Positions 4,328 to 61,879 of a stretch of DNA of 64,000 nt are shown here, piece by piece. Source of the DNA: a virus; the IMG/VR virus record IMGVR_UViG_3300032180_000001, positions 64,001 to 128,000 of that record. One strand, written 5' to 3'. Numbering within the stretch: position 1 is the stretch's first letter; every line of letters starts with the position of its first letter. A program made the position numbers and the translations under genes. The notes below the pieces were generated by a model. That model was not told the origin of the DNA and did not search any database. It saw only the letters and a list, made by a program, of their open reading frames with translations.

Positions 4328-4708
4328 ATGTTCATCACAGGTGTTGATGATGACATAGTTTCATGCCGAGCCTACGGCCACCGCTGGCCCTCGAAGAACC
4401 TGCGATCCGGTCGGAAGCTGCCCAGGGGCTTCGTTCCGCGGGCGGTTCATAATGGCAGCGTGGAGATCACCGAGATATGCCCTGACTGCGGGAAGAAGCG
4501 GGTCACCGTGACGCTGCCTGGCGGAGCCTTCAACAAGGAGGTCATCCGGAACTACGTCGACCCGCCGAACTGGCCGGTGTTCAAGGGCGATGATCGCAAG
4601 ACGCCACGGGACTTCCAGGCAGAGATGTATCGTAGGGTGAACGAAGAGCTGATGGCCGAAGCGCGCAGGAACCCGCTACCCCACGACGGGGATGCTTCGG
4701 GTGACTGA
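4328..4708 (+). CDS. hypothetical protein with CRxxGHxW and CxxC motifs
   Basis: SD-like AAGGGGG upstream; first gene of the rightward cluster. Confidence 0.7.
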   Translation: MFITGVDDDIVSCRAYGHRWPSKNLRSGRKLPRGFVPRAVHNGSVEITEICPDCGKKRVTVTLPGGAFNKEVIRNYVDPPNWPVFKGDDRKTPRDFQAEMYRRVNEELMAEARRNPLPHDGDASGD

Positions 4709-4793
4709 CCTTCAAGGTAGCCTGAGGAGCAGAGAATGCCCTGGCACCGCGCCAACGGCCCAGGGCTGGCCACTGCCCCCGGAGAACAGCGAC

Positions 4794-5375
4794 ATGAAAA
4801 CTATACCGCTGTATGGTAAGAAGGCTGCTGGGCGTGTCGCACTAGTCGACGACGAAGACTACGAGCTAGCTATGAGGTACAGGTGGCACGTTTTTGAAAG
4901 AAAACAACCATCGGGTAACACAAATGGCCCTTATGCCTCCACCAACGTCAGAAAGCCTGACGGCTCCAAGCGTATTATCCGCATGCATCAACTGCTCATG
5001 GGGTTTCCCGCATGCGACATAGACCACAGTAATCACAATAGTCTAGACAACCAGCGCAGTACTAATCTGCGCTTGGCCACTCGCAGCCAAAACAACGCAA
5101 ATCAGATACCTCGATCAGGAAAAACTTCTGTATACAAGGGTGTTTCCTGGCATAAAGGCGCTAAAAAATGGACAGCTAATATCACTGTATACAGTAAACA
5201 GTGCTACCTCGGACTCTTCCTTAGCGAAGAAAATGCCGCCAGAGCGTACGATAAGGCTGCACTTGAGACATGGGGCGATCGAGCGCTGCTTAACTTTCGC
5301 CGGGTGAACGATGAGCTGATGGCCGAGGCGCGCAGGAACCCGCTGCCTAGCGACGAGCCTGAGGAGCCCGAATGA
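4794..5375 (+). CDS. HNH endonuclease with AP2 domain, C-terminally fused to a duplicated end of the upstream gene
   Basis: Start chosen by homology to 2964-3488 (MKTIPLYGKKAAGRVALVDDEDY) and GGAG SD; IDHSNHNSLDNQRSTNLR and AP2 motifs present. Confidence 0.9.
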   Translation: MKTIPLYGKKAAGRVALVDDEDYELAMRYRWHVFERKQPSGNTNGPYASTNVRKPDGSKRIIRMHQLLMGFPACDIDHSNHNSLDNQRSTNLRLATRSQNNANQIPRSGKTSVYKGVSWHKGAKKWTANITVYSKQCYLGLFLSEENAARAYDKAALETWGDRALLNFRRVNDELMAEARRNPLPSDEPEEPE

Positions 5376-5611
5376 CAACCGAGACGGAGCCGGCTGCTTC
5401 CTCCCTGCACGATCGCATCATCGGTCTGCTGTCGGCCGGCGGACCGGAGCAGATCCGGGCGGCCCTCGTCACGGTGCTGGAACGCCACGCCCCCCTACGC
5501 GATGACTGGGGCAGCATCTCGTGTGCATGCTGGTCGAAGCTCGGGCACCCAGCCTGGCCCTGCTCGGAACTGAAGCAGATCATCATGGCGCTATCGGAGG
5601 AGACGGAATGA
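5372..5611 (+). CDS. hypothetical protein
   Basis: ATGA coupling on both sides. Confidence 0.6.
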   Translation: MTTETEPAASSLHDRIIGLLSAGGPEQIRAALVTVLERHAPLRDDWGSISCACWSKLGHPAWPCSELKQIIMALSEETE

Positions 5612-5949
5612 CGACCACGGCAGAAAACCTGCGGAAGGCCGCGAGCCTGCTCCGCGAGCGCGGGCACTGCAAGAACGCCCTGGAAGACGATGACGGCCGG
5701 CTGTGCATGATCGGCGCCTGGAATCTGGCCGTTCTGGGCCACAGCAAGAGCACCCCCAGTCGTCACGGCTGCGCGGACGTAATCATGGACATTGTCGGCG
5801 AGCAGTTCCCCGACCGAGTTCCGAATTACATACTGTGGTCCTGGGCGACATTCAACAACCATGACGACACCACCGCTGATGACGTGATCATGGTGCTGGA
5901 GAAGGCTGCTGCCCGGCTGGAGGAGAACGATGAAAATCCTCGGGCGTAA
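5608..5949 (+). CDS. DUF6197-like actinophage protein
   Basis: LRKAASLLRERGHCK...GRLCMIGA...FNNHDDTTADDVIMVLEKAA pattern; GGAGG SD. Confidence 0.6.
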   Translation: MTTTAENLRKAASLLRERGHCKNALEDDDGRLCMIGAWNLAVLGHSKSTPSRHGCADVIMDIVGEQFPDRVPNYILWSWATFNNHDDTTADDVIMVLEKAAARLEENDENPRA

Positions 5950-6154
5950 TGCTGTGCAATCAGCGCAGGCTATTATCCTCGCCGTGAAATCATGGGATGA
6001 GCTGACGCAAACCATTATGAATGCTCAGGATGAGGCAGCCCGCAAACGAGATGATCCTTTCTTCAAGGGGGCATCGGCTGCCTACGCTAGCGTGCTCGAC
6101 TGGATGCAGGAGCTAGAAAAAAGAAATGGCCCGCTCGGAGGAAGAATCCGATGA
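5930..6154 (+). CDS. hypothetical protein
   Basis: SD-led ORF within the coupled cluster. Confidence 0.55.
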   Translation: MKILGRNAVQSAQAIILAVKSWDELTQTIMNAQDEAARKRDDPFFKGASAAYASVLDWMQELEKRNGPLGGRIR

Positions 6155-6372
6155 GTGAGTTCATCCTGACCACCTGCGGATGCAATGAGCCCCAGGTAAC
6201 CCCTCCCCCGCGATGCACAAACTGCGGCCGGTACAGCCACCGCGTAGATGACGGCTACAAGATTCCTCCCCGGGAAGGCCTGCTAACCGAGTGGTTTTTC
6301 CGGCGCTGGGCACGGCATAGGAACCAGCAGCCGCCGAAGCTGTCGGGTCGGATAACGACGGACTCATCATGA
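6151..6372 (+). CDS. hypothetical Cys-containing protein
   Basis: ATGA overlaps; CxC and CxxC motifs. Confidence 0.55.
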   Translation: MSEFILTTCGCNEPQVTPPPRCTNCGRYSHRVDDGYKIPPREGLLTEWFFRRWARHRNQQPPKLSGRITTDSS

Positions 6373-6773
6373 CCACTATTTACCTGGCTGTCAGCGGTGA
6401 GTATAGCGACTCCCGGGTCTGCCACGCGTTCAGCCGCCGGGAAGACGCCGAGAGCTACAAATTGGGCGTTGACGTGAGGGAGCTGGAGCTGCATGACGGC
6501 CCCGTCGAAGTGCGAGAATGGCACATGCTCTGGTGGCGGACAGATCTTCCCGACAGGGAGACGATACCGGGTTTCGCGAACGCCAATCCATACGAGTCAT
6601 TTTTGCTCCAGGACTTTAACGGCGACGAGCGGTACTGCCGTCATGACTGGAAAGGTGCGCCTGCCACATCTGCGGGTGTTCTTACCGTCCAGGGCTGGAA
6701 TCTCGATCAGGTTCGCAAGGTCTACTCAGAGCAGCGGGCACAGTACCTCGCAGGGAAAGAAGGCATCGCGTGA
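6369..6773 (+). CDS. hypothetical phage protein
   Basis: IYLAVSGEYSD...FSRREDAE N-terminal motif common in phage small proteins; coupled. Confidence 0.6.
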   Translation: MTTIYLAVSGEYSDSRVCHAFSRREDAESYKLGVDVRELELHDGPVEVREWHMLWWRTDLPDRETIPGFANANPYESFLLQDFNGDERYCRHDWKGAPATSAGVLTVQGWNLDQVRKVYSEQRAQYLAGKEGIA

Positions 6774-13312: not shown

Positions 13313-13589
13313 CGCCACGCTTCTTCCCTATGATGACGAGTACGATAACGAGTACAACGACGAATCTGAGTACATACGCCAGCTTGCCCAGTACTATCCG
13401 CGCCTGGATAAATACCGAACAGAGGTAACCGAGCTTTCCGACGATCGGGGGTTTTACTGGCATCTCTATTCCCGCGATAACGGACGGCGCGTCAACGGAG
13501 GCCTCGCCGGAACCTGGTCGGGTGCCCTGCATGCCGCCCGCCTAGCAGCAGCATACGGACACGGGAGCGGTGCTCATGAACGCTACTAG
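13302..13589 (+). CDS. hypothetical protein
   Basis: ORF in the cluster. Confidence 0.55.
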   Translation: MQPDATLLPYDDEYDNEYNDESEYIRQLAQYYPRLDKYRTEVTELSDDRGFYWHLYSRDNGRRVNGGLAGTWSGALHAARLAAAYGHGSGAHERY

Positions 13590-14100
13590 ATATCACGTCA
13601 CTATATTTAACACTATGAAACCAGTCAAAGTTCTACGGATGCCAAGTGGTGAGATAGCGCTGATAGATCCGGAAAACTGGGCTAAGGTTCAGGAACGTGG
13701 ATCTTGGCACATTAATAAAACTCCAAGTGGAAAAACATATGTGCGCAGTAGCTCCAATAAAGGACGCCCTAAAGTACTGCTGCATGTATTCCTTACTGGT
13801 TTTCAGGAGACAGATCATATAAATGGTAATGCGCTGGATAACCGAATTGACAATCTAAGATCCGCAACCCGTAAGCAAAACATGGCTAACCAAAGAATGA
13901 AACGTACAAATAGATCAGGCTATAAAGGTGTAAGCTGGAATAGTGATACGGGTAAATGGCGAGCAGATATATCAAGAGGACCCGCTCACTACCTGGGACA
14001 GTTCACTGATCCTGTAGAAGCTGCCAAGGCTTATGACATAGCAGCGCTTAACCTCTACGGAGAGTTTGCTCTAACTAACGAAAGGATGGGCTTGCTATGA
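13570..14100 (+). CDS. HNH endonuclease with AP2 domain (probable start ATG 13615)
   Basis: ETDHINGNALDNRIDNLR plus SGYKGVSW...YLGQF...AAKAYD...GEFA; AT-rich. Confidence 0.9.
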   Translation: MLMNATRYHVTIFNTMKPVKVLRMPSGEIALIDPENWAKVQERGSWHINKTPSGKTYVRSSSNKGRPKVLLHVFLTGFQETDHINGNALDNRIDNLRSATRKQNMANQRMKRTNRSGYKGVSWNSDTGKWRADISRGPAHYLGQFTDPVEAAKAYDIAALNLYGEFALTNERMGLL

Positions 14101-14346
14101 GGTACCACGTTACCCCATGGGGTTTTTTACTGGCTTGTCATCCTGATAGCTATTGTCGGACCGGAGGTTTACTGGGTTTTCGTCAATGGTGCCAACACTA
14201 TTTCAGATAACACCTGGGCGGTCGAGCGCCTGGACTCGCATCCGTTCGACATGTCCGACTGGACCTGGCTGCACTGGACTATCGCGCTCCTGCTCTGGTC
14301 TCTCTTCGGATGGCTCTCGCTGCACCTCCCCTTCCATATCCTTTAG
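14097..14346 (+). pseudogene. small membrane protein frameshifted at T6 (14123-14128)
   Basis: Removing one T gives MRYHVTPWGFYWLVILIAIVGPEVYW...NTISDNTW...HWTIALLLWSLFGWLSLHLPFHIL; ATGA overlap with the HNH stop. Confidence 0.65.
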
Positions 14347-14416: not shown

Positions 14417-15118
14417 ATGCGGAAGATAAAGAAATTCTCACTCACGATCCTCGTCTTTTCTGGTCTGCTCACTCTACTGGCTTTTACAGGTAACCAGGCT
14501 CCTGCTGTATCAGCGCTCCCCGCCCCACCGCACGGCTACCATCTGACCTATAGCCATGACTTTGCAACCCAGGGCTGGGGCGACTGGTCAATTACCTCGC
14601 AGAACGGCGCAACAGAAGCTGTTACCAGTCAGGGACTCGGTTCAACCCTGACAGCCACGATGCAGAATGTTGGCGCAAGTTCAGCCTTTGCGTTCAAGCC
14701 AGGCTCGTTTATCCAGGGATACGTGTATCTGGACCCGATTAACGGGGTAATTGCTAACTGGCCCGCGTTCTGGTCAGTCGGCCCGAACTGGCCGTATGGC
14801 GGGGAGATCGATTTCGTGGAAGGGCTGGGCGGATCCGCCTGCTGGCACACGCATTACCCAAACGACCCTAACCCGGGTGGTTGCGCCCCGGCCGGGCAGT
14901 TCACCGGCTGGCACGTCTTCTCCGCGCTCTGGACGCACGGGAAGGTTACCTTCTGGTACGACAGCCAGCAAGTAGGGACCGAACCGCTGACGACAGATAA
15001 AAATCTTCAGCTTGAGTTCGGTTCCACGTCAAACGATTTCGGCTGCTCGATCTGTCTCGGACCTCCGAAGTACCCGTCAACGGTTTATCTTCAGTGGGTG
15101 AAGGTCTGGCATAAGTAG
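14417..15118 (+). CDS. secreted glycoside hydrolase family 16
   Basis: Signal peptide; WPAFW...GEIDFVEG catalytic ExDxxE motif; WHVFSALW...VTFWYD. Confidence 0.85.
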
Positions 15119-15490
15119 TCAGGGGGCAGGCGTTTTCGCGGGCAGTTTCGCCAGTGGCGTGAGGTTCTGCCGGAGCAGCAAGCCGAGAACGATGCTAACG
15201 GCCGCCGTAGTCGATCCGATCGCTGATGGAGAGAAATGCAAGTGGAAGGCGCCGAGCGCGATCAGCACGGACGTGAGACCGCCCTTGATCACCGGAAGGG
15301 ACACTTCGCGAACGAGCACGGCGGTGAGAATCGAGAGCACAGCAGTAGTAATAACGGTGATCGCTCCGGTCTGGTCGGCGGTGAGATGCCAGCCCCAGGA
15401 CACGGCTAGCGCTACCGCAGTGTTAACGCCGAACAGGATGACGGCCGGCTCCGTCCGGATGAGGTTCAGCAGCTGCTTGAGGTAATTCAC
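15119..15490 (-). CDS. holin-like multi-TM protein
   Basis: About 4 hydrophobic segments; RTEPAV...LTADQTGAI pattern of actinophage holins; last gene of the late operon. Confidence 0.65.
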   Translation of the reverse strand: MNYLKQLLNLIRTEPAVILFGVNTAVALAVSWGWHLTADQTGAITVITTAVLSILTAVLVREVSLPVIKGGLTSVLIALGAFHLHFSPSAIGSTTAAVSIVLGLLLRQNLTPLAKLPAKTPAP

Positions 15491-15492
15491 GG

Positions 15493-16386
15493 TCAGGCCT
15501 TTCGGTTACGGGTCAGCAGGGTTACCAGGGCGAGAAGGCACCCGGATGGAGAAGGCGCCGAAGACGGCGGAGTAGAAGACGAACTCGGTGCGAGCGGCGG
15601 TGACGATGCGGGGGCGGGAAAGGGATTCTGCCCGGTAATCGCATTAAATTCGGAGCCGAGCGTCACCAGATCGACACCATCCGGATCCTTCCCGCTCGTT
15701 TTGTTTACCCAGTTAAGGCTGACCGGCGCCCAGGCTTCGCTGCTGAAGGTGGACCAGAAATTCCAGTCCATGTGCCAGAGTTTCCCCCAGGTGAGCAGCA
15801 GGAAACCAGCCGCGTCGTACCCGCAAATCAAAACGCAGTGCCCGCCGGCCAGCGAAGTGTCAGTGGTAACGATCCACGGCTGACCGTTATCGAATTGCGT
15901 GATGGCACTGTTCGGCAGGTTCAGCGCGACGGACAGGCAGCCGAACTCCCAGATCGCGGTCTTCATCTTCTCGATGGCGGTAATGTCCACCTCGCCGTAA
16001 GCCGCGATCATCACGCCCGCCATGCCGGGGTTTTTCAGGTAGCTGAGGCCGTCCGGGATCTGCGCTCCGTTATCGGTCGGGTTGCGGCCTGGCGGCCCTG
16101 CGTTCGGGTCGAAGCCGCCAACCACCTCGTACGCTGTCAGCACCGCATCGTCGGGGACGGTAACCTCGGAGCCCTGACCGAACCAGGTCTGCTGCTGTAT
16201 GATATTCGCATCACTCGCGAGTACACAGCACCCGTACGTATCATTCAGGTGCATTCCTATCACAGGGATACCTGAGCCCCAGTTAACGCTCGGCGGGGCC
16301 ACGTTCTCACGTAGGGAGGCGGTCAGCCGGACTCGGGGGCGTTCCGATGGTGTCGGGACTAGTCCGCCCCGGAATACGGTTGTCAT
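15493..16386 (-). CDS. papain-like cysteine peptidase (possible lysin)
   Basis: GCCVLAS nucleophile region, GHCVLICGYD His motif and LTWG; Pro/Ser linker with a hydrophobic-basic tail. Confidence 0.7.
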   Translation of the reverse strand: MTTVFRGGLVPTPSERPRVRLTASLRENVAPPSVNWGSGIPVIGMHLNDTYGCCVLASDANIIQQQTWFGQGSEVTVPDDAVLTAYEVVGGFDPNAGPPGRNPTDNGAQIPDGLSYLKNPGMAGVMIAAYGEVDITAIEKMKTAIWEFGCLSVALNLPNSAITQFDNGQPWIVTTDTSLAGGHCVLICGYDAAGFLLLTWGKLWHMDWNFWSTFSSEAWAPVSLNWVNKTSGKDPDGVDLVTLGSEFNAITGQNPFPAPASSPPLAPSSSSTPPSSAPSPSGCLLALVTLLTRNRKA

Positions 16387-16395: not shown

Positions 16396-16554
16396 CTATC
16401 GTGCTTCCGGTTTCTTCTCTTCCGGCCGGTACTCCCAGGTTCGCCAGCCAGTCCGTCGGAAGCCCTCGCGCTTCAGCCGCCGAACCTGCCACGGCCAGGA
16501 GATCGCAATCCAGATCCGCAGGAAGAAACGGCTGCGCCGGGGAACACCCTCCAT
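16396..16554 (-). CDS. small basic hypothetical protein
   Basis: MEGVPRRSRFFLRIWIAISWPWQVRRLKREG...; C-terminal part of the long ORF-track call. Confidence 0.4.
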   Translation of the reverse strand: MEGVPRRSRFFLRIWIAISWPWQVRRLKREGFRRTGWRTWEYRPEEKKPEAR

Positions 16555-16722
16555 GCCTAACGGACCTTTCCGGGTAATCTGGGAGCCACCGCACGATACG
16601 GTCTGGCTGGCCACGCTGCTCCCCCAAGTGCTGGAGATGGCGATAGTCTGCGGACTCGTTGTGTCGAAGTTTACCCCGGTAGCTTGGTTGTCGAACAAAG
16701 TATTACATGTTATGCTAAAACC

Positions 16723-17433
16723 ATGAGCGGACCAGCAGGCGTTACCTACCCGCCCGGCTATCGTTTCGGCCGGGGCACCGTCATTGAAGAAGTCAGGTTT
16801 CCCACAACAGACCCCCGGTACCGGAGCGGCGTTCGCGGCATAAGACTGAGGTGTGACTGCGGAAACGTTTACGAAGTTCGGCTCGCAGCGCTGACTAAAA
16901 AGTATAAGCCAACCCAATCGTGCGGATGCCTGATGCGGGAAGTAGCACAAACAGCCTCCATAACGCATGGTCTTACTTATCACCCTCTTTACGAAGAATG
17001 GAGTAACATCAAACAGCGATGTTATAACCCGGATAATACCTCGTTCAGGTGGTATGGAGGGAGAATCACCCTGTGCAAGCGCTGGCACGATCCTGAGCTT
17101 TTCATAAAGGATATATTGGCCGAAATCGGTCCGAGACCTAAGGGGCGCACCCTGTCGGGAAAGATGCCAGCTTGGTGGATCGACCGTATCGATAATGATG
17201 GTGACTATAAACAAGGTAACGTCCGCTGGGTCACGCCAACTAAATCGACTCATAATCAACGTAGACACTGGGATACTAAACTTGATCCCGAGAAGATAAT
17301 TGATATTAAGCGACGGCTCATTGCAGGTGAGAGCGGGATTTCGATAGCCAGATCTTACGGTGTATCGAAAGGGCATATTAGCCGAATTAAAACCGGTAAA
17401 GCATGGTCTCATATCAAGGACCTTTCCGGGTGA
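16723..17433 (+). CDS. HNH endonuclease with C-terminal HTH (antisense insertion)
   Basis: HPLY..W..IKQRCYNP...YGGRI...IDRIDNDGDY..GNVRWVT; HTH IARSYGVSKGHISRIKTG; TGnTATGCT 6 nt before ATG 16723. Confidence 0.85.
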   Translation: MSGPAGVTYPPGYRFGRGTVIEEVRFPTTDPRYRSGVRGIRLRCDCGNVYEVRLAALTKKYKPTQSCGCLMREVAQTASITHGLTYHPLYEEWSNIKQRCYNPDNTSFRWYGGRITLCKRWHDPELFIKDILAEIGPRPKGRTLSGKMPAWWIDRIDNDGDYKQGNVRWVTPTKSTHNQRRHWDTKLDPEKIIDIKRRLIAGESGISIARSYGVSKGHISRIKTGKAWSHIKDLSG

Positions 17434-19669
17434 GCTGACTGCCACCGCACGATACGGTCTGGCTGGCAACGCTGCTCCCCCAGACGCTAGAAATGGCGAT
17501 AGTCTGCGCGCTAGTCGTATCGAATGCTACGGACGTACTTTGTGAGCTTAGGTATGCGTTGTTATTATTTGATCCCGATGAGCGATTGGCGTTGATTCCG
17601 ATCCCGCCATCGATAAAAAGGCTTACCTTACCCGAAGATCCGGCAGTAGTTATCATTGCTTTCAACGTGATATGCCCGGAAAATGCCTGACCAGCACTGA
17701 AGAATCCTCCGCCGATTGTGTCGCCTCCGCTAGTCGTCTCAACGGTGCCCGACAGGTTCGGCTTAAACCCGAGCGTAGCTGTTTCGAAGGTACCATTAAA
17801 CTCCGCTTCCACCTCATAAATGGTACCGACTACCGCGTCATTCGCCGGAATGGCCCAGGCGACTGTCATCAACTGCGTGCCATTATTGGCGTTAGTCTTG
17901 GCAGTCGTGTCCGTCTGCACGATCGGGAAGGTTCCGGAAAATGCAGCGTTAGTCAGTCCAGACGGCCTGCCAGAGAGCGTTACCGTTCCTCCGATAGCCT
18001 GAATCTCAACACCTTCCGTACCTGCCTGGATCAGGAAACCGGTCGTCGGGTTCCACCATTGAAGTGCCCCTATGGCAGACCACGGGCTGACGCTCCCGGT
18101 CATCGCACTGGCCTTGTACCAGTTGATCGCACCGCCTTGCTGGAGCTGCATCGCAATGTAACCAGATCCAGTAATCGTGTCAGGCCCGTAGGTTACCAGC
18201 CCGGGGAGCAGCCAGTTACCGTACTGATCCTGAGCTTCCGACGGCGCGACGTTGCTTGCCAGCAGGGTATTCGCACCTCCGACGGACAAGTACTGGCCGC
18301 TCACGGTACCGTCCGCCCCGTTACCGCCCTTTGGCGGGGCCGCAGCGGTGTGCCCGTACACGGTAAGAACCGGCGCCTGGGTACCGCCGCCGGCTCCGGC
18401 GAAAGAACAGCGATAGCTCGTATCCAGAGCAGGAGCGAGGCCGAAGGTTAGCGCGGTGGCGGTCCCGGCCTTCAAGGCGGTAAGAAAGCCGGTGGCCGCG
18501 GTGAGATCGATCACCGTGGTAACGCCCGCAAAGGCAGTGAAACTCTGGATTTGCGTGATGGCCGGAGACAGGCCGGTCCAGGATGGTCCGATGCCCGGCC
18601 CAAAGGTCGCGTACCCAAGCTTGACGGTCGCCCAGGCGCTGTACGTGGTCAGGCAGGTCAAGGTTAGCGTTACCCGGTCGATGGTCACGGTTGCCAGGTC
18701 GCTGGCTATCGACGACGGCAGGATCATGCCAGATTTCTGGGTGCCGTACAAGTTCCCCGGGCTGCCGGAAACGCCACCCTGATGCAGGGTGCCATCCGAG
18801 GGCGTAGAATTAGCCAGCTGATTGGCGCCACCTCCGATCGCGTCACTGCCATTCCAGGTTCCAGACAACGTTGGGTTGTAGACATGCGTGACCTGACCCG
18901 CTGCCGAGGCCGCCCCCGCACCGCCGCCGCCCGCACCAGGCGACGCACCGTTGCTGCCGCTAACGCCCGCATTACCGCCGGCACCGCCCGCGCCGCCGCC
19001 AATCGAGCCTGCTAGGCCACCCAGGGCTCCACCGCTCCCGCCAGACGTAGCACCATCGCCGCCATCGTCGGCGTTTCCCGCGCTCCCGCCGCCACCGCAG
19101 CCGCCCGTTGACTGAGTGCCGTCACCGCCGCCGATGCCGCCGTCCTGCCCGTTACTGCTGAGACCGGATGGAGCGCTGCCGCCCGTTCCGCCAGATCCCC
19201 CGATGAGGTTACTTCCGGCGTTACCTCCATTAGCTGATATTCCCCCGAGGGCGCTGCCGAGATCAAAGGAGGAAGCCGTGCCAGGCTGACCAGGATTTCC
19301 GGTTGTACCGCCGCTGCCGCCCGCGCCAACGGTATATGAATATATTTGACCTGGGGTTACTGGATAAGCTGGGCAGGAAAAGTACTCGCCTCCGCCGCCG
19401 CCTTCCCCGCCTTTCGCCGATGTTCCGCCGCCACCGCCCGCTCCCGCACCCCAGCACTGCATCAGAAGCGACGTTACACCGGCCGGGCAGGTCCAGGTAT
19501 ACGTTCCCGCAGCGGTGGCTGGCATTCCGGCGGGACTGTTAGCCGTAATTTCCCAGACAATGCTTCCGTTCGGCGGCGGCTGCGCGACAAGCGCGTTGAA
19601 CCGCTGTTCCAGTCCCTGCAGCTTCGCGAGGCCCTTGGGCAGAAGCTGTGCTCTCGAAGGGGTGGGCAT
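17414..19669 (-). CDS. glycine-rich minor tail / tail fibre protein
   Basis: WTCPAGVTSLLMQCWGAGAGGGGG glycine-rich domain; position after tail genes; start adjusted to MPTPSRAQ. Confidence 0.75.
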   Translation of the reverse strand: MPTPSRAQLLPKGLAKLQGLEQRFNALVAQPPPNGSIVWEITANSPAGMPATAAGTYTWTCPAGVTSLLMQCWGAGAGGGGGTSAKGGEGGGGGEYFSCPAYPVTPGQIYSYTVGAGGSGGTTGNPGQPGTASSFDLGSALGGISANGGNAGSNLIGGSGGTGGSAPSGLSSNGQDGGIGGGDGTQSTGGCGGGGSAGNADDGGDGATSGGSGGALGGLAGSIGGGAGGAGGNAGVSGSNGASPGAGGGGAGAASAAGQVTHVYNPTLSGTWNGSDAIGGGANQLANSTPSDGTLHQGGVSGSPGNLYGTQKSGMILPSSIASDLATVTIDRVTLTLTCLTTYSAWATVKLGYATFGPGIGPSWTGLSPAITQIQSFTAFAGVTTVIDLTAATGFLTALKAGTATALTFGLAPALDTSYRCSFAGAGGGTQAPVLTVYGHTAAAPPKGGNGADGTVSGQYLSVGGANTLLASNVAPSEAQDQYGNWLLPGLVTYGPDTITGSGYIAMQLQQGGAINWYKASAMTGSVSPWSAIGALQWWNPTTGFLIQAGTEGVEIQAIGGTVTLSGRPSGLTNAAFSGTFPIVQTDTTAKTNANNGTQLMTVAWAIPANDAVVGTIYEVEAEFNGTFETATLGFKPNLSGTVETTSGGDTIGGGFFSAGQAFSGHITLKAMITTAGSSGKVSLFIDGGIGINANRSSGSNNNNAYLSSQSTSVAFDTTSAQTIAISSVWGSSVASQTVSCGGSQLTRKGP

Positions 19670-19691
19670 CGTTTGTCGGTCCGTCCTCTGA

Positions 19692-21179
19692 TTAGAATTT
19701 TTCAGGATACATACTGGAAACCAGTGAAGCCATGTCCATCCGAACTCCAGCGAACGGCGTAATTGTTGCCGTATCCGTATCATTATCGAATTCATAAGAG
19801 CCAACGAGGAAAGTGATGGGGCCGGGGGTTACCTCGCCGCCAAGGCTCGCGTCGGTGCAGATCAGCTGGGCTACTTCCCCCGCGTGCTCGCAGCCGAGAT
19901 CAACCGGAACGCCACCCGGATTCAGGTACTGTCCCGGCCCGACGGTGAACGGCCCCGCCCAGTTGGCCCTTATATAACGAGACAGTATATTATTCCCGAT
20001 CGCCTGCGCCTGCGTGGCTGTAAGCGTGCCAGCCGAGGTAATGTCCTGGTAATATTCCAGCACCCCGTGTTTCTGCGCTGATGCTGTATTCTGCACGGTA
20101 GTCGTCGTAAATGTCGCGAGAACTTCTGCTACGAGCACCGCTCCGCTAGGCCCGGTTACTGCGGGGATATCCGGGGTCTCCTGATAACGCAGCACCAGGG
20201 TATTAATGTCCAGCGCGATGGTGCGCGCGACGGGCGTGGTGGCAACCAGCATGCGGGTGGGCTTCCCGTTCGGATTGCCTGCCGCGTCGGTGGGATACGG
20301 GAAGACCCGCAACTGCCACGGACCGCTCGGCAATGTTGACCCCTGGCCTTCTTGCACATCCCAGAGCAAACTACCGCCCGTGCAAATCAAAGTGAGATAA
20401 TCCGTAATGGTCTGGCTACCGGAATCCTGCTCTTGAAGAAGATAAACACCAGCCGGAGTGCCAATGCCGTGATTTACCCAGCGGAGTCCTCGGGTGATCG
20501 CTTCGTTGACATGGTCGTCGGGGTTACCCCACGTGGTGTACATGCTGGCGAAGTTCGTGCCAAGGGTGCCAGCTCCGTGTGCTGTGCAAGTCCAGCCGGC
20601 CGACGTGGGCTGCGGCTCGTCGAGGATGCCCTCCCATACGCATCCGGCACCGCGGAAGATCTGTATCACCCGTCCGGGATCAAGGGCATCGGTACGGGTT
20701 TCCGGTGGGATCTGCAATGTCCAGCTGGCCGCGTCCGGGCCACCAGGGCAGGTGAAAGAGTACTTGAGGCCACCGACGTGACCGATCGCGCCCAGCCAGC
20801 GGGGGTTTTTTGGCCGGGGCAGGATGTTTATCTCATCGGTCGCCACGGGCGTGACCGCAGGCAGCGGCGTGAACGATATTGTGTAGTTCGCTCCCGCACC
20901 TGGTGTTACCGTGCTGACCCGGAACACTGTCGGCTCTTTCAGCGATCCGCCTCCCGTTTGAAGCTGAAAAGCATCACCGGGCTGCGGAACATACCCGAAA
21001 AGCGTTCCCGTTACAAACGGCTGAACAACCACATAGGGAAGATAAAGACCTCCTGACTGTGAAGTCCCGGCCGACGTGATGGCGATAACGGTGCTCAGGC
21101 TCGGGCTTGTCGGCGAATAAGCCGGCCAAGCGGGTGCAAGGGAACATATCTGCGAACGACTTCGTGACTCCAATGGCAT
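19692..21179 (-). CDS. minor tail protein (Tal/hub-like)
   Basis: Position and ...GPDAASW...GRVIQIFRGAGCVWEGILDEP pattern. Confidence 0.65.
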   Translation of the reverse strand: MPLESRSRSQICSLAPAWPAYSPTSPSLSTVIAITSAGTSQSGGLYLPYVVVQPFVTGTLFGYVPQPGDAFQLQTGGGSLKEPTVFRVSTVTPGAGANYTISFTPLPAVTPVATDEINILPRPKNPRWLGAIGHVGGLKYSFTCPGGPDAASWTLQIPPETRTDALDPGRVIQIFRGAGCVWEGILDEPQPTSAGWTCTAHGAGTLGTNFASMYTTWGNPDDHVNEAITRGLRWVNHGIGTPAGVYLLQEQDSGSQTITDYLTLICTGGSLLWDVQEGQGSTLPSGPWQLRVFPYPTDAAGNPNGKPTRMLVATTPVARTIALDINTLVLRYQETPDIPAVTGPSGAVLVAEVLATFTTTTVQNTASAQKHGVLEYYQDITSAGTLTATQAQAIGNNILSRYIRANWAGPFTVGPGQYLNPGGVPVDLGCEHAGEVAQLICTDASLGGEVTPGPITFLVGSYEFDNDTDTATITPFAGVRMDMASLVSSMYPEKF

Positions 21180-24500: not shown

Positions 24501-24819
24501 CTTTTGCCGCAGCAAGAGTTACGTAATCAGGCGCACGGATAATAATCGGCAGCGTGATCGTCCGGTTGCTGGCCCGGTAACCGAAAGGACGCTCGCCATC
24601 CAGCAGCAGGCTCTGGACTAGGTCAGTAGTCGGCTGTGGTGTCCCCAGGTCATAGTTAGCAGGAGCGCCTACCGTTGTGCCCCCGCCGGCCGGATTGTAC
24701 AGCCGGAAGGTAGCACCAACACCATTGGCATTCATTAGCTCTGGTATGTCACTTTGAACAGGTGTATTCCCGCCAAGCAACTCAAACAAATCAGCAATTA
24801 CAAGCGAGTCACTTGACAT
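21517..24819 (-). CDS. distal-tail-like protein with glycine-rich insertions (1100 aa)
   Basis: Follows the tape measure gene; N-terminal NRTITLPIIIRA Dit-like region plus repeated Gly-rich units. Confidence 0.7.
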   Translation of the reverse strand: MSSDSLVIADLFELLGGNTPVQSDIPELMNANGVGATFRLYNPAGGGTTVGAPANYDLGTPQPTTDLVQSLLLDGERPFGYRASNRTITLPIIIRAPDYVTLAAAKELLMATVDAQTWTLSWTPASTGLTQVFDCFRALPTVNSYGFAPEAVTPIAGITLSFQALPYGRTDPAGQTTVNFASPLTGQSAPPPAVTLDNFSSVSGTNWTQSATQFVVGPHSARYTQPSANANVTAVYTRTGLSLSIAGLTALSVWFGQSFDAPHGKPWVPFASDVTLNWTLTDNSGHTLSFHVTGKKTPWSVSSEAPKWTRLTAAIPQGTAGFNYNGITAYKLVISNHRVSGGWSEWRLMNAWLDNIVANPPSISTPASVRGVNYNIMGVPGTARTPFSAQFQLPSQAVITQTLTGSTGLWWPPNGVTSVTAECVGAGGSGGARSTAGLGGGGGGGEYASQVLTVAAGTPVPYACGTGGQSGAAPVVVTFNQAGNGSWTCPAGVTAVKAECWGGGSGGAAGGGGGGGGEYAAEPAVAVTPGTSYPFTVGVGGLGGNWGLAGFQGAVGGTTTFAGDTPATAHQTVTANGGLTEKPGGTLGGVGGTGSANTTHHDGGAGGTSPSYGAGGGGGSGGSAAGGNTGNNASGMTGGTGATAVTGGGAGGNGASSPGWPTAGGAPGGGGGGGYTNPNTGVNNPGANGSTGQIVLTYTVASGSPVDGGSTTFGTYPGWTGASGTAGVTVTAHGGKATLLNSTTGGLGGTGSSATTHHDGGAGGLGGTNGGGGGGSGGSAATGTAGTAGASGGTGAPAVKGGGKGGNGATVANTVGLSGSAPGGGGGGADYSSGNAVAGGLGGQGSITLTHTPPLAPFGTLIVHRPGHNAPPSLNPCVPILNTADLPTGIEYKVPTLIAGQNALFDGTYSVIAVAYNWDNPTASRRMTITVNQYEYLGKSKAPFQTTINRTFTPATDIVNGIVMMGEMTLPVKDIDFSNTSGYFTVSITDTDLEDQFLDVLFIDTQGQTVIVNIPSGGVYTNFYIDEPSTDRDLGRILGSDLDRSQAVSVLDSAIPSGGPFYLDGGQNKTDNLLFAYSPSGAPSLGVTFVNRWFLERLVL

Positions 24820-24847
24820 CGCAACCAGCTCCTAGCATCATGGAATC

Positions 24848-25594
24848 ATGAGTGAATCGAAGGAGCGCTGGCTCCCTGTTCCAAGGTACGAAGGCCTGTA
24901 TGAGGTATCCGATCTCGGCCAAGTTCGCAGTCTTGATCGTTACATACGAGGAAAGTACGGATCTCGTTTCCTTCGCGGACGAGTTCTTCACCCAGGTTCC
25001 CCTCGAAATGCGCGTCGAACTGTATCGCTGTGCCGCGATGGTGAACGTGAGACTCGTCTCGTAGGTAATCTGGTCCTGGAGGCATTCGTCAGCCCGCGCC
25101 CCGTAGGACAGGTAATACGCCATGGCCGGGCTGGAGGCGGTGCGCTTAATGACAGCCTGGATAATCTTGAATGGGGTACCCCAGAAGAGAACATGGGAGC
25201 GGACTGCCTTCGTGACGGCACAGATCGCAGGGGTGAAAAATGTGGAATGGCAAAGCTGACTGCAGCTATCGTCACGGAGATGCGCATCAGGTACCTGGCT
25301 GGAGAAACAGTAACTTCTCTCGCAGCAGAATTCGGAGTTAGCGAATCGACGGCAAGTAATGCGATAACCGGAAAGAGATGGAGCTGGCTGCCCGGTGCTG
25401 TGCCGATTGACAATAAACGTCGTGGAAAACAAGGAGAAAATCATCACGCTGCAAAGCTTACGGCCGAGATAGTCCGGGAATGCAGAATTCGTTACGCAGC
25501 AGGCGAAACTACATACGCACTTGCCGAAGAGTTCGGAGTAAAACAGCCAACCATGCAAAAGGCCATCTCGGGTAAAACCTGGAAGAACATTTAG
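24848..25594 (+). CDS. NUMOD4-HNH endonuclease with two C-terminal HTH repeats (antisense insertion)
   Basis: ERWLPVPRYEGLYEVSDLGQVRS NUMOD4; IRH...NDSLDNLEWGTPEEN; two AKLTA..V.E.R.RY.AGET...LA.EFGV repeats. Confidence 0.9.
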   Translation: MSESKERWLPVPRYEGLYEVSDLGQVRSLDRYIRGKYGSRFLRGRVLHPGSPRNARRTVSLCRDGERETRLVGNLVLEAFVSPRPVGQVIRHGRAGGGALNDSLDNLEWGTPEENMGADCLRDGTDRRGEKCGMAKLTAAIVTEMRIRYLAGETVTSLAAEFGVSESTASNAITGKRWSWLPGAVPIDNKRRGKQGENHHAAKLTAEIVRECRIRYAAGETTYALAEEFGVKQPTMQKAISGKTWKNI

Positions 25595-25628
25595 CCCCGC
25601 GATCACCAAACTGTCCGCAGTCATTTAA

Positions 25629-42785: not shown

Positions 42786-43534
42786 TTACGTACCGGAGAT
42801 GCCCGTGGTGGGATAGCGCATTATCGCGCTTGCTGCGCTGAACGTGCTCTTCATGGAGACCGCTGCCGCAACGCCGCCGGCGACGGCGTAGTCGGGAAGG
42901 ATCTTGCCGAAGAAGTACTGGCCTGGCCCGGCTCCCTGCACGCCGACCGTGGACGGGTAGAGGTAAAAGTTCCGGGGCTGGCCGTCGGTCGCCGCGACGT
43001 AGGTCTGCGCAGTGGCAGTGTCGTAGAAGCCGGTAAAGTCACCGGATGCGTCCGGCAGGCCGGCCACCCAGATCAAGTTAGAGTCTCCCATGGTGGTGAC
43101 GTCTACCTTGGCGACGGTGAAGTTGAGGCTCCAGTCTGACAGAAACGCCATCGGGCTTGCTGAGTCGGTCGGGTTTACGCCAATGTAAGCGATCGTTCTG
43201 TTACCTCTCGTCCTTTTTACAGGGCGAGCGGGCTGGTCATTTCTGCCAGCCTCTGCATGTCTCCATGCAGTCCGGACTATACCTTCACCCACAAGGGGTG
43301 CCACGTACCTAGTCTCTGAACCATCCCGTCGAGACCTTTCAGTTCAGGCGGGCTCGGCTGCTGATTACCCCTGCTAATCTCTTTTTGAACCATCGCGCTC
43401 GCGTTTTCACGCCACGCTGTGGTGCGATCAGGTGACTCGGGCGTCCCAGCAATTCTCGCAGTTTGCACTGAGTGATTGCTCTCTCAGGCGGCCAGTCGAC
43501 CGTTGCGTCCATGAATTCTCGAGATGGTACTCAT
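42786..43534 (-). CDS. major tail tube protein, two exons (43534-43499 and 43193-42786)
   Basis: Spliced product MSTISRIHGRNG|IAYIGVNP...WSLNF...VDVTTMGD...GLPDASGDFTGFYD (147 aa) resembles actinophage tail tube proteins; AAGGAG upstream. Confidence 0.8.
43194..43498 (-). ncRNA. group I self-splicing intron (305 nt, no ORF)
   Basis: P AATTGCTGGG (43454-43445), Q AATCAGCAG (43366-43358), R TCAGAGACTA (43319-43310), S AAGGTATAGTC (43285-43275). P1 has U-G at the splice site, the intron ends in G, P9 has a GAGA tetraloop, and removal restores the reading frame. Confidence 0.92.
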
Positions 43535-43825: not shown

Positions 43826-44941
43826 ATGAAAGAGAAAATCTGCATCGATTGTGGCAGAACTTACACACACGGCGGACGGGGGCTGTGCCCGAACGACTAC
43901 GCAAAAAGGAAGCGCTACGGAACACTTCCGCCCCTGAAAACAAGAGGCCCCGACGCTCAGTGCAAAGCTCCCGAAGGATGCACGAACATGGTAGGGCGCT
44001 CCGGCGCCAGAGGGCTGTGCCCTAAGCACTACCAGCGACTTGTCAAGTCAGCTGGAGGGCTGGAGCAACCGGTGCGAACGGCTCCACTAGCGGCGAGGTT
44101 TCGCGCGAAAATAAGTACCGAGCCATGCCCGTGCGGTTGCGATTGCGAACTGTGGACGGGAGGGATTCAGCCTAAAACCGGGTACGGTAATTTCTCGATC
44201 AAGAACAAGACTTATCTAGCACATCGCGTCGCGTGGGAGCTGGAGAAAGGCGAGATACCGGACGATTTCGATATCGATCACGTCCAGGAGCGCGGCTGCC
44301 GTCATAGGCATTGTGTTAAGATTACGCACCTGGAACCTGTTCCGACGGTGCTGAACAATCGGCGTATACCAATGACGGAGCAGCGAAGAGACGGACTTTC
44401 GGAAGCAGGAAAGAGGGGATCTGCCATCCGCTGGGCAAGAGTCCGGGCCGGTGAGGCTGAAGTCGATCAGGCAATCTGCTCCCGGGTTCTCGCTTTCGTT
44501 CTTGCCCATCCCGATGGTAGTCGTGCGCGGCAGATAGCAGAGGCGCTGGATATGTCTATCCACAACGCAAGGCAAGGTCTTACCCGTCTCGCTAAACGCA
44601 AGATGATTCTCGGTAATGGTTCCGGGCTTTACCAGCCGCTACCTGCTGAAGAATGCTGGCGTCCTGTGCGAGGCTATGCCGCGTTTTATGAAATCTCTGA
44701 CCGGGGGAACGTCTCTGCCCTGGCCCGGCCGCGAACGCACGGCGGACTGCTGATTCCCCAGCTCAACTCCGCAGGCTTCCGGGTTGTTCGGCTGTCTAAG
44801 TACGGTCAAGTGACAACATGGACTGTAGGACGACTCGTGCTCGAAACGTTCTGCTGGCCACCTCCGCATCCGAAGGCGAGAGCGAAGCATGGCCTAAACG
44901 GTAAGCTAGATGACGCACTGTCAAATCTTCACTGGAGTTAA
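43826..44941 (+). CDS. chimeric HNH endonuclease (Zn fingers, HNH, HTH, NUMOD4, truncated second HNH)
   Basis: CELWTG...GYG...LAHRVAWE...DIDH...CRHRHCV...HLEPV, followed by WRPVRGYAAFYEISDRGNV. Confidence 0.8.
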   Translation: MKEKICIDCGRTYTHGGRGLCPNDYAKRKRYGTLPPLKTRGPDAQCKAPEGCTNMVGRSGARGLCPKHYQRLVKSAGGLEQPVRTAPLAARFRAKISTEPCPCGCDCELWTGGIQPKTGYGNFSIKNKTYLAHRVAWELEKGEIPDDFDIDHVQERGCRHRHCVKITHLEPVPTVLNNRRIPMTEQRRDGLSEAGKRGSAIRWARVRAGEAEVDQAICSRVLAFVLAHPDGSRARQIAEALDMSIHNARQGLTRLAKRKMILGNGSGLYQPLPAEECWRPVRGYAAFYEISDRGNVSALARPRTHGGLLIPQLNSAGFRVVRLSKYGQVTTWTVGRLVLETFCWPPPHPKARAKHGLNGKLDDALSNLHWS

Positions 44942-48432: not shown

Positions 48433-48819
48433 CTAGTGCGGATACAGAGCCTTGCAGTCCCGCGGAGCGTCCTTGGCGTTCACGATCGCGCGCAGCTCGG
48501 TTACCTCCGCTATTATCTTCGGCGTCAGCTTTGCTCCCTTCGGCGTCGCATCAGAGAAAAATGCGCCCCAGAGAAGTTTATCTTGCGCTCGTGCACTATT
48601 ATTTTCCACGCACTGACTGTACTGAACGACCGCTTCACCGCTGTTCCCGTGAATCTGCCCGATCGTCAGGAAAACAACGATGATCGACAGTGCTACATCC
48701 AGGCAGATGGAAACAGCCAGCATCAGCGCGGTCTTCTTGCTGGCTTTGCCTCGCTGCAACTGCCCGATCAGCCTCATCGCCGTGCTGATCAGGGCCTCAT
48801 CATCCTCTTCCGGCTTCAT
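48433..48819 (-). CDS. single-TM membrane protein, paralog B
   Basis: DDEALISTAMRLIGQLQRGKASKKTALMLAVSICLDVALSII. Confidence 0.7.
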   Translation of the reverse strand: MKPEEDDEALISTAMRLIGQLQRGKASKKTALMLAVSICLDVALSIIVVFLTIGQIHGNSGEAVVQYSQCVENNSARAQDKLLWGAFFSDATPKGAKLTPKIIAEVTELRAIVNAKDAPRDCKALYPH

Positions 48820-49214
48820 CTCGTCCCCTGTCCGTATACTTGCTGGCAGTCCACAGGAATATAAAGAGCTTCAACTACTTTCAGGAAAGATTTACCGAGC
48901 GCGTTACTATGAAAATCCTCAGTATTCAGTATCCACAGACTAACAAACTCCTGCTGAGTAGCATTGCTCTCATTGCAAATGGTCAGCTCCTGTGAGCGAA
49001 GTCGGTTTTCCTGATCAACAAGTCCGGAATTACTGTGCGACAACCCGACCCCGAGAAGTATCACCACAATGGAAAGCGTGACATCCAGAAAAATAGAAAT
49101 AGCGAGCAACAGCACAGTTTTCTTGCTGGCCTTCGTCCGCTGAAGTTTCTTTATCAACTCCATCGCAGTGCCGATCAGAACATCATCGGCGGGTTCCTCA
49201 GTTCTGTCCGGCAT
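48816..49214 (-). CDS. single-TM membrane protein, paralog A
   Basis: DDVLIGTAMELIKKLQRTKASKKTVLLLAISIFLDVTLSIV; start adjusted to MPDRTEEP. Confidence 0.7.
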   Translation of the reverse strand: MPDRTEEPADDVLIGTAMELIKKLQRTKASKKTVLLLAISIFLDVTLSIVVILLGVGLSHSNSGLVDQENRLRSQELTICNESNATQQEFVSLWILNTEDFHSNALGKSFLKVVEALYIPVDCQQVYGQGTR

Positions 49215-50555: not shown

Positions 50556-50771
50556 CTAGCTCAGCCATTTTTCCGTCTTCGCCTGCTCGATGAAACGTAG
50601 CATGATCGCCGCCGCAACCCTGTCCCCAGCGATAAAATCTTCTGCCACGCCGTTCATGATCCGCAGGAGCAGTCCTTTCAGCTCTTCCGTCTCCACAGGT
50701 ATCAGCTCGTCCCGGCCGAATTTCTCTAGCAAAGTATCCAGGCGCAGACGACTCGACGGGATAGCTGTCAC
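50556..50771 (-). CDS. small helical protein (LDxLL...AAAIMLR family)
   Basis: LDTLLEKF...DRVAAAIMLRFIEQ. Confidence 0.7.
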   Translation of the reverse strand: MTAIPSSRLRLDTLLEKFGRDELIPVETEELKGLLLRIMNGVAEDFIAGDRVAAAIMLRFIEQAKTEKWLS

Positions 50772-51268
50772 GACGAACCTGACTCGTCCTGGAAAAACTC
50801 TCTGCGCCTGACGGCAGCAATAACATACAACCCTCGCTCTGTCGGAATAGGGGCCAGTGTTATATCGACAGGAAGTTCCTGACCGCTCTTCGTCAGTAGC
50901 GAAAGAGCGAGGCCCGTGCCCATCGGGCGAATTACCGGGTTAGTCAGGTAAGCTTTCCGATGCGCCGCGTGCCCAGACCTCAGAACACTAGGTACCAGCA
51001 TATCTATCGACTCTCCGCGCAGTTGTGATCGGTAATAACCAGTCAGCAGCTCCATCTGACGGTTAACCAGGAAAATTTTTCCGGTCTCTCCCTCGACAAT
51101 GGTAATAGCATCCGGAAAATCATCGAATATCTTGATAGTCAGATCAGCGACGAAAACTATGTCAGTGCGAGGAATCTCCGGACGCAGCAGGAGATGCAGT
51201 ACAGGCACAACATACGTTTCAACCGAATTATCCGCCAATTCACTGCCTCCCTGTTCACTATTTGTCAT
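50768..51268 (-). CDS. stand-alone PAS domain protein
   Basis: FDDFPDAITIV...IFLVNRQMELLTGY.RSQLRGESIDMLVP...H...Y...RPMG...TKSGQELPVDITLAP. Confidence 0.85.
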   Translation of the reverse strand: MTNSEQGGSELADNSVETYVVPVLHLLLRPEIPRTDIVFVADLTIKIFDDFPDAITIVEGETGKIFLVNRQMELLTGYYRSQLRGESIDMLVPSVLRSGHAAHRKAYLTNPVIRPMGTGLALSLLTKSGQELPVDITLAPIPTERGLYVIAAVRRREFFQDESGSS

Positions 51269-60351: not shown

Positions 60352-60391
60352 AACACTACCAGCATGTGATCACGCACTTATAATCACAACC

Positions 60392-60859
60392 CTACTTTCT
60401 AGGTGTACCGTTATAAACTCTCCCCTTATGCAAACCACATGTGCAGCCTGGAAGACAAGGTTGCTTCCTTGGAGCATTATGCTTTCCACAATCACAGCCA
60501 GGAAGACAAGGAGGGGACCCAGGAAGACCATGTTTTGCGCATTCGCAGCCCGGAAAACATGGTGGAGATGGTCTAAGATTTCCAACTGTTCCATCATAAA
60601 CTCCGTGACAGCTATAGCACAACGGCCTGTAGTGCCAAACATCTGAACCATCTAGTCCGTGAATTTGAGACCATTGCTTAGCAAAGTCGTTACAAAACGT
60701 GCATCCATAACCAGTAGCTTTGCCTCTTACTTTCTTAACAAGAGAATGGAGGTTAAAGTAGTCTAGTTCACCATCGTATGCCCTACCTTTGTGTCTACCG
60801 CACTCGCACCCTGGAAGGCATTTTTTACCGGGGTGATTACTTCGATTTCCTTTAGTCAT
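60392..60859 (-). CDS. HNH-like endonuclease with four CxPGCxCxxH repeats
   Basis: CTFC..FAKQWSQIHG.D...YRPLCYSCHGVYD; TATAAT 6 nt before ATG 60859; in frame with the upstream gene. Confidence 0.7.
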   Translation of the reverse strand: MTKGNRSNHPGKKCLPGCECGRHKGRAYDGELDYFNLHSLVKKVRGKATGYGCTFCNDFAKQWSQIHGLDGSDVWHYRPLCYSCHGVYDGTVGNLRPSPPCFPGCECAKHGLPGSPPCLPGCDCGKHNAPRKQPCLPGCTCGLHKGRVYNGTPRK

Positions 60860-61879
60860 AGTAGTATTATACAACATTCCTTGAATAAATTCAACCATTG
60901 AAATTCCTAACCAGCATGTTATACAGACGAGTCCATTACCACCGTTCCCGCCTGCACCGCCTGTAACTCCACCGCCTCCGCCTCCGCCGCCACAGCCGAT
61001 AGCACCATCGCCACCACGGCCACCGATACCAGCGCTAGCCGATCCGCCACCCGTTCCCCCGAAGAATACCCAGGTTAGATTGGTATAACTAGCTCCGGAC
61101 ACTCCGGCACCTCCCCCGCCTGCGACCCCGGTACCCCCAGGAAAATTAGCCGGAAAAAAATTAGGCCCTACACCTGAATATGTATTCGAATACGGTGTTA
61201 TACTACCGCCATTTGTATCGCCATTTGCAGCTGATGCGCCCCCTCCGCCGCTGCCTCCGGTTGTCATTATTCCGCCTGCAGCAAGAGTCACACCTGTAGC
61301 ATTTCCTGTTCCATTCCCGCCAGCGGAGGCGGAGGCGATAATGGAACTAGCTGATACCATCCCGACCATACCATAACCAGCATAAGACTGACTTCCATTT
61401 TCACTAGCCCCAGCTGCACCGCCCACACTAGCTGTCCCGGCTGATCCGAAAGCTGCCGACTGGTTTGAATTAGTTACAGCAAGAGCAGGGGCCTGACCGC
61501 CTATATTACTGCCGCGCATGATGTCACCAAATAGTCCTACGGCAGTAACATCGCCCGAAGAGCCGTTTGAACCAGCCGCACCGCCCGCACCGCCAGTCCC
61601 TGCATAAACATATAGAGAGGCAGGCAAGAGAAATGCCGGGACCAGGTACCGTACAGATGCCCCGGCGCCGCCACCGCCTCCGCCGCCACGTAGTGTAGAA
61701 GTGGCTCCAGAATAGCCTCCTCCGCCACCAGCCCCGGGTCCGATCAGCATCATCCAGACCATGGTAATCCCTTTTGGTTTTGTCCATATCTGACAGGAGT
61801 TTAGACCGATATTGTAAAACACCTGCTGCCGGTCACCTGTATCTGGCCAGCCAAAAAAATCAGGCATGTCAGTAATCAC
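60860..61879 (-). CDS. glycine-rich virion protein (expected stop after ITCW absent; reads into the HNH gene)
   Basis: WTKPKGITMVWMMLIGPGAGGGGG...GGNGGNGLVCITCW. Confidence 0.7.

Follow-up and report, generated by a model that had tools for sequence, protein, structure and literature searches.

In fungal mitochondria, mobile open reading frames (mORFs) are known to produce "gene hybrids", as in atp6 of Allomyces macrogynus and in atp6, atp9, cox2 and nad3 of Glomus (PMC3630166), and C-terminal duplications have been described for atp6 and cob of Endoconidiophora (PMC6279837). In these hybrids a foreign C-terminus completes the gene, the endonuclease open reading frame (ORF) is sometimes in phase with it, and the native C-terminus is displaced, the two termini differing mostly at synonymous sites (PMC3630166, PMC6279837). 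In bacteriophage T4, the free-standing endonucleases SegF, SegG and MobE home without an intron and co-convert the flanks (PMC2790892; reviewed in PMC2988022; Belle et al. 2002, as cited in PMC8351571), and free-standing HNH genes have been described for Cluster J mycobacteriophages (PMC3706429) and HNN-AP2 genes for Xanthomonas phages (PMC2248197). Here we describe putative free-standing homing endonuclease genes (HEGs) at gene ends in the IMG/VR virus record IMGVR_UViG_3300032180_000001, which has 184,980 bases and is estimated to be 99% complete; the stretch analyzed, bases 64001-128000 (64,000 nucleotides), is referred to as the window. Every HEG with good support is flanked on its two sides by diverged versions of a single gene terminus. 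One version is continuous with the gene body and makes the gene complete; the second stands apart as an orphan and retains the original junction with the neighbouring gene. We consider these structures to be probably the footprints of free-standing HEGs that invaded the extreme 5' or 3' ends of genes. The initial annotation of the window had proposed five such duplications, likening them to the Allomyces atp6 element; the arrangement was found in cases 1, 3 and 4 and probably in case 5, as well as in four further cases outside the window and in an unrelated phage locus, while case 2 fell within chance similarity. Positions are those of the window for cases 1 to 5 and those of the genome for the cases outside it (Table 1).

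The 3' ends of two genes are clearly duplicated around an HNH gene. In case 1 the target gene ends YRRVNEELMAEARRNPLPHDGDASGD-stop (4628-4708), and this terminus recurs as FRRVNDELMAEARRNPLPSDEPEEPE-stop (5295-5375), with a DNA core of 54 nt that is 87% identical and in which the proportions of synonymous (pS) and nonsynonymous (pN) differences are 0.36 and 0.09, respectively. The HNH-AP2 gene between the copies, whose likely start at 4794 (MKTIPLYGKK) is shared with its paralogues, has no stop codon of its own and is fused in frame into the orphan terminus (5295-5372), and the orphan stop shares bases with the start codon of the gene that follows (ATGA at 5372). Since a homologue of the target in a locus without an HNH gene (P0008, 52% identical) ends YRRSAEDIMAEARRNPAAEE-stop, the duplicated segment is the natural C-terminus. 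In case 3 a glycine-rich tail protein has the C-terminus SQTVSCGGSQLTRKGP-stop at 17414, and 42-48 codons of the 3' end of its gene recur as an orphan, with a 107-nt core that is 84% identical, peptides that are 77-86% identical, a pS of 0.43 and a pN of 0.13. The HNH gene in between has a helix-turn-helix (HTH) tail and no Pfam match; it lies on the strand opposite to its neighbours, probably starts at the ATG at 16723, and overlaps the in-gene copy with its final 17 nt. A homologue of the tail protein (P0006, 62% identical) ends TRKGP-stop with no HNH gene downstream. Cases 1 and 3 are confirmed: in each, an HNH gene is bracketed by diverged duplicates of the 3' end of a gene.

In case 4 the duplicated segment is the 5' end of a gene for a glycine-rich tail protein of 1100 aa, which starts MSSDSLVIADLFELLGG at 24819. 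The pair comprises 11 codons (MSSDSLVIADL in the gene, MTADSLVIAGL in the orphan), and the orphan ATG (25624) directly follows the TAA of a 5176-aa upstream gene. Nearly all shared residues are encoded by different codons and DNA identity is 46-48%; the pairwise score was within the control range (p about 0.1), while in a test anchored on gene termini the score was reached by 1 of the ~125 controls. The motif M-x-DSLVIA-x-L is kept at the N-terminus across the tail protein family, and a profile of 61 homologue N-termini, searched against all six frames of the genome, found just two sites; the true start scored 26.1 bits and the orphan 24.0, against 13.7 for the next best. Because this profile finds exactly the in-gene start and the orphan, the case 4 duplication can be regarded as confirmed, but only with evidence from outside the genome. 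In two related sequences (L017 and the P0017 contig), a tape-measure-like gene is followed within 30-52 nt by the case 4 gene, with no HNH gene between them.

Case 5 concerns the end of a gene for a glycine-rich protein of 323 aa, which a 495-aa ORF (60392-61879) fuses to a Cys-rich domain. The family, represented by 140 homologues of 280-335 aa, ends GGxGLVIITCW-stop; because W323 aligns with the last residue of these homologues, the stop codon of the target has been lost (TGGTAG to TGGTTAG). Beyond the domain, an orphan CVITCW-stop matches the in-gene VCITCW (60911-60928, minus strand), and 5 nt separate its stop from the downstream ATG (60351) of an 816-aa gene. Pairwise comparison gave a p of about 0.1-0.3, whereas in a search of the genome with the family profile the orphan ranked 1st of 8512 stop-terminated hexapeptides and 4th of 310,453 hexapeptides overall. 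The sequence evidence makes this duplication probable. In an unrelated phage known from a metagenome (L019), this gene end is occupied by a different gene, of the Pfam HNH_3-HTH type and on the opposite strand; the in-gene copy there reads through (VWITCWLQRV), and an orphan DSDLVVITAWL-stop lies beyond the HNH gene. This locus is independent support for the case 5 pattern. Three in-frame fusions had been claimed for the window; only those of cases 1 and 5 are real. It had also been claimed that all five insertions encode HNH proteins, which is borne out for cases 1 and 2 (Pfam HNH_3 and AP2), case 3 (phrog_374) and case 4 (NUMOD4 with a weak HNH_3), but not for the case 5 domain, which consists of CxPGCxCGxH repeats around a CxxC...H...CxxCH core and had no match in Pfam, NCBIfam or a PDB sequence search. 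A protein atlas gave weak HNH and NUMOD3 leads (0.85-0.88) for this putative nuclease domain, and single-sequence fold prediction reached a pLDDT of 35. A free-standing paralogue of the CxPGC type (genome 2583-3218) is flanked by a 132-nt duplication with 84% nucleotide and 91% protein identity that starts exactly at the ATG of the downstream gene, and therefore behaves like the HNH genes.

Across the genome, Pfam models identified 14 HNH or NUMOD4 loci, and other approaches added four nuclease-type genes, namely the case 3 gene, its plus-strand paralogue (genome 14844-15605), the case 5 domain and the CxPGC-type paralogue. Terminus duplications were found at ~8 of these 18 genes. As a genome-wide control, the left flank was compared with the right flank for all genes of 100-430 aa. 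Strong flank matches occurred in three settings only: at nuclease-type genes, in tandem paralogue arrays, and in a repeat array around a transposase-like gene. Apart from the tandem paralogues and the transposase repeat region, which are non-nuclease sources of flank similarity, no terminus duplication was found at the ~125 other genes (0 of ~125), and the association with nuclease genes is exclusive in this control. Duplications occurring as often around non-nuclease genes, which would have spoken against the proposal, were not seen in this genome.

Table 1. Features of the five cases in the window and of the further cases elsewhere in the genome.
Feature	Position	Strand	Basis or remark
Case 1 target gene, 126 aa	4328-4708	+	last 26 codons (4628-4705) are the in-gene terminus copy
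Case 1 HNH-AP2 gene	4794-5375	+	Pfam HNH_3 and AP2
Case 2 HNH-AP2 gene	13615-14100	+	Pfam HNH_3 and AP2
Case 3 orphan, 42-48 codons of the tail gene 3' end	16561-16704	-	encodes QATGVNFDTTSPQTIAISSTWGSSVASQTVSCGGSQITRKGP
Case 3 HNH gene with HTH tail	16684-17433	+ (opposite to neighbours)	phrog_374 HNH endonuclease, E 1e-40
Case 3 target, glycine-rich tail protein, 796 aa (longest start)	17414-19804	-	in-gene copy 17417-17560
Case 4 target, glycine-rich tail protein, 1100 aa	21517-24819	-	in-gene N-terminus 24787-24819
Case 4 NUMOD4/HNH_3-like gene with HTH repeats	24848-25594	+ (opposite)	Pfam NUMOD4 E 2e-12, HNH_3 weak
Case 4 orphan N-terminus MTADSLVIAGL	25592-25624	-	profile of homologue N-termini
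Case 5 orphan terminus CVITCW and stop (6 codons)	60356-60376	-	family profile
Case 5 inserted domain, CxPGCxCGxH repeats	60392-60898	-	in frame with target
Case 5 target, glycine-rich, 323 aa	60911-61879	-	natural last residue W323
Further case, CxPGC type, 5' end	genome 2468-2599 / 3224-3355		flank duplication at ~2.6 kb
Further case, case 3 type, 5' end of Clp_N gene	genome 14680-14778 / 15596-15694		flank duplication at ~14.8 kb
Further case, NUMOD4 type, 5' end	genome 20139-20246 / 20926-21012		flank duplication at ~20.3 kb
Further case, HNH-AP2, 3' end	genome 28602-28679 / 29220-29291		flank duplication at ~28.7 kb

The copies differ mostly at synonymous sites, with a pN/pS of 0.1-0.3 in all pairs and, for five pairs pooled from inside and outside the window, a pS of about 0.49 and a pN of about 0.12, which bears out the earlier description of copies that agree in protein and differ in codons. 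Since neutral decay after a duplication in place would be expected to give a pN/pS near 0.5, most of the divergence appears to predate the time at which both copies came to share one genome. The orphans keep a compact native junction with the neighbouring gene. The GC content of the nuclease genes is 0.44-0.53 vs 0.58-0.62 for resident genes, and the GC content at third codon positions (GC3) is lower in the in-gene copy in 6 of 7 pairs. Taken together, the synonymous divergence, the native orphan junctions, the GC-poor nucleases and the direction of GC3 speak for an in-gene copy that was imported along with the nuclease gene from a diverged donor and displaced the native end. In case 4 the GC3 of the target is low across the first 40 codons (0.40, vs ~0.7 further in), which suggests that the imported tract was longer than the duplicated part. 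HNH-less homologues start or stop exactly at the copy boundaries, and the equivalent junctions of relatives show an HNH-less arrangement for case 4 (L017 and the P0017 contig), case 1 (L015) and case 3 (L014), with relatives of only 50-70% protein identity.

On our best reading, the gene end of the donor travelled in with the HEG and took the place of the resident one. The HEG would have cut a HEG-less genome close to a gene end, and repair would have copied the HEG together with the gene end of a diverged donor phage. With homology confined to the gene-body side, the opposite side would have been closed by illegitimate joining, and the terminus of the recipient, everything between the break and the end of its gene, would have stayed behind as the orphan. 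The orphan and its flank could then act as a second homology arm, so that the whole unit could home into HEG-less alleles, and the in-gene copy, which differs at many synonymous sites, would probably go unrecognised by the nuclease (self-immunity by recoding). Recombination between the copies could delete the HEG and restore an intact gene.

A duplication made in place, in which repair at the HEG insertion copied the target's own terminus (as a long target-site duplication or by template switching) and the copies diverged later, would explain why direct repeats flank the insert and why their length varies from 18 to 144 nt, as expected from imprecise repair, and it accords with the fact that no donor was identified. 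We nevertheless consider it unlikely, given that the nucleotide divergence of 9-26% is mostly synonymous, where a neutrally decaying orphan would be expected to reach a pN/pS near 0.5 or higher, that in 6 of 7 pairs it is the in-gene copy whose GC3 is lower and resembles that of the HEGs, and that the reading frames of the HEGs are still intact despite the time such divergence implies. The target-site duplications of transposons are short, identical and fixed in length, whereas the repeats found here are 18-144 nt long, variable and 74-91% identical, and do not fit this pattern. Intron-encoded nucleases were rejected, as Rfam found no intron at any of the five sites. It is very improbable that the assembler joined HEG-plus and HEG-minus strain variants in series. 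Such an artefact is conceivable in a metagenome-derived contig, but eight independent mis-joins would be needed, each with shared k-mers at a non-homologous junction, the reading frames are kept in cases 1 and 5, and the L019 locus, from a different sample, has the same structure.

For the short cases, coincidence near gene boundaries is a somewhat likely explanation, covering the RYHVT match of case 2 and possibly the ITCW match of case 5. In case 2 the shared element is A-x-RYHVT only, with 14 of 19 nt in common (13582-13602 and 14094-14114); one site lies upstream of the likely start of the HNH gene and the other begins an ORF of only 37 codons, which gene calling did not pick up. When +/-70 nt windows were compared around the 125 non-nuclease genes, the case 2 score was reached by 14% and the case 5 score by 29%, and the DNA-level score of case 5 stands at about the 87th percentile. 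Chance accounts less well for the case 5 orphan, which tops the stop-terminated hexapeptides in the family profile and sits exactly at the expected gene end, and for the same pattern at the same gene end in L019; in case 2, different codons are used for 4 of the 5 shared residues, as in the real cases.

Several observations weigh against invasion of gene ends by HEGs that bring a donor terminus. No credible neighbouring gene ends at the case 2 match (p about 0.14), and this duplication is not confirmed and is within chance. The evidence for case 5 comprises 6 codons only, and in case 3 the likeness ends at the stop codon, where the orphan has TTA and the gene TGA. As the copies were found by similarity, pN is biased downward, and the GC3 direction signal, although present in 6 of 7 pairs, is weak. 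The record is itself a contig derived from a metagenome. No close HEG-less relatives were found in searches of GenBank phages and IMG/VR, so that the native copy was assigned from junction context and GC3 alone. Specifically, Megablast of 20 kb against GenBank phages gave 0 matches, and scans of IMG/VR returned fragments only with the case 1 target, nothing with the case 3 tail protein, and, with the gene adjoining the case 3 tail gene, distant loci only, none of which has the arrangement. No duplications were found flanking the HNH genes of two relatives (L017 and L018), nor by a blast scan of HNH genes at L002, L003 and L014; for L019 that scan returned an unrelated repeat and nothing else, and the short terminus duplication there was seen by eye. 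Since related HNH loci without duplication exist, this outcome is not obligatory.

The surroundings of these genes offered further observations. Homologues labelled Streptosporangiaceae, an Lsr2 gene, present in one related locus, and a gene with a ClpC-like N-terminal domain point to a large, actinophage-like genome. The 5176-aa gene upstream of case 4 is a single ORF (25629-41159, minus strand) in the tape-measure position, where relatives have proteins of 1529-1985 aa; it contains an ADP-ribosyltransferase domain (PF03496, roughly residues 456-619) as well as a LysM domain, and within it a 99-nt unit is repeated in tandem 3.7 times (31807-32167). The sole group I intron found by Rfam lies at 43253-43508 on the minus strand (RF00028, 52.5 bits, full-length model), towards the 5' end of a gene that resembles those for major tail proteins (42786-43304, phrog_10528), and ~320 nt from it, on the opposite strand, is a gene with HNH_3 and NUMOD4 (43826-44941, plus strand); this may be an intron next to a free-standing nuclease gene. 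A truncated N-terminal fragment of an HNH-AP2 gene (2699-2959, minus strand) directly downstream of an intact one (2964-3488, minus strand) looks like a tandem invasion with one copy decaying.

At the further case of the case 3 type, the phage protein contains two Clp_N repeats (L004:13936-14766, minus strand), and the orphan N-terminus (15596-15694, minus strand) reads MYERFTDQARRVVVLAQEEARLLDH, which looks nearer to the sequence of bacterial ClpC1 than the in-gene copy does. A frame at genome 14787-15590 (minus strand), which had appeared to be a non-nuclease case, was rejected as the open antisense frame of the plus-strand HNH gene at 14844-15605. The antisense strands of four opposite-strand HNH genes are fully open (window 16396-17469 and 24809-25624, 272-1012 of L005 and 14787-15590 of L004, all on the minus strand), and these frames outscore the true HNH frames on codon usage and are easily miscalled as genes. 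Among the flank matches in the control, those at genome 13432-13779 and 31623-31955 and at window 48816-49214 and 50768-51238 are due to tandem paralogues, and the match at genome 58.8-61.2 kb to the transposase repeat array, and none of them was counted as an insertion. The latter region (L007:3800-6200) has ~6 non-coding repeats of 100-130 nt around the transposase-like gene phrog_4285 (genome 60043-60879). Tandem arrays of small paralogues lie at window 1775-2593 (minus strand) and at genome 13.4-13.9, 31.6-32.0 and 161.0-162.2 kb; in one family the proteins end VPW(Q/R)P, in another they begin M..LVAVPDVFLPDG. Outside the window, the genome yielded no tRNA genes.

If gene-end invasion is the correct explanation, HEG traffic between mosaic phage genomes would swap gene ends, those of tail genes included, and leave datable scars that record directly how HEGs move with one homologous flank only. 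The orphan ends would mark likely cleavage positions, and the target sites of uncharacterised HNH families could thus be predicted from sequence alone. Annotation would also call for caution, as orphan ORFs of short length, fusions by read-through (cases 1 and 5) and antisense frames that stay open across HNH genes would be miscalled as genes. We put forward only tentatively a general strategy of "bring your own gene end", in which the mobile unit would consist of a nuclease gene and a codon-diverged target terminus and would need neither intron nor intein to insert within coding sequence in compact operons; the native end that it displaces would serve as homology arm and as substrate for later precise loss. 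Large actinophage-like genomes might commonly carry such units, and the protein with CxPGC repeats might represent an undescribed family of homing nucleases. The generality of the mechanism is doubtful, because the HNH loci of L017 and L018 show no duplication.

Compared with the systems described previously, the cases reported here are most like the mitochondrial mORF hybrids, in that an endonuclease ORF lies beside a gene end, the gene is completed by a diverged terminus, the other terminus lies displaced on the far side of the ORF, the differences are mostly synonymous and the ORF is sometimes in phase. Unlike those hybrids, they occur in a bacteriophage, and their nucleases belong to HNH families, not to LAGLIDADG or GIY-YIG; 5' ends are hit as well as 3' ends, half of the nuclease genes are on the opposite strand, ~8 events are found in one genome, and there are no relatives close enough to tell which copy is foreign. 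With intronless homing in T4 they share free-standing nuclease genes beside or between conserved genes and a spread that is thought to proceed via break repair and co-conversion of flanking markers. In T4 the nuclease-carrying allele is protected by sequence differences, and here an analogous protection is only inferred; in the T4 cases described, the flanks were converted cleanly, with no orphan of the replaced segment. Like the actinophage and Xanthomonas phage genes, those studied here include many HNH or HNH-AP2 genes per genome and degenerate copies; the genes described there are present or absent among relatives, and precise insertions or no conserved flanks were reported for them, without gene-end duplications (PMC3706429, PMC2248197). 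We found no phage report of retained orphan termini in the open-access literature, which is weak evidence of absence. The feature is real and recurrent, and is best filed as a phage variant of the phenomenon known from mitochondria.

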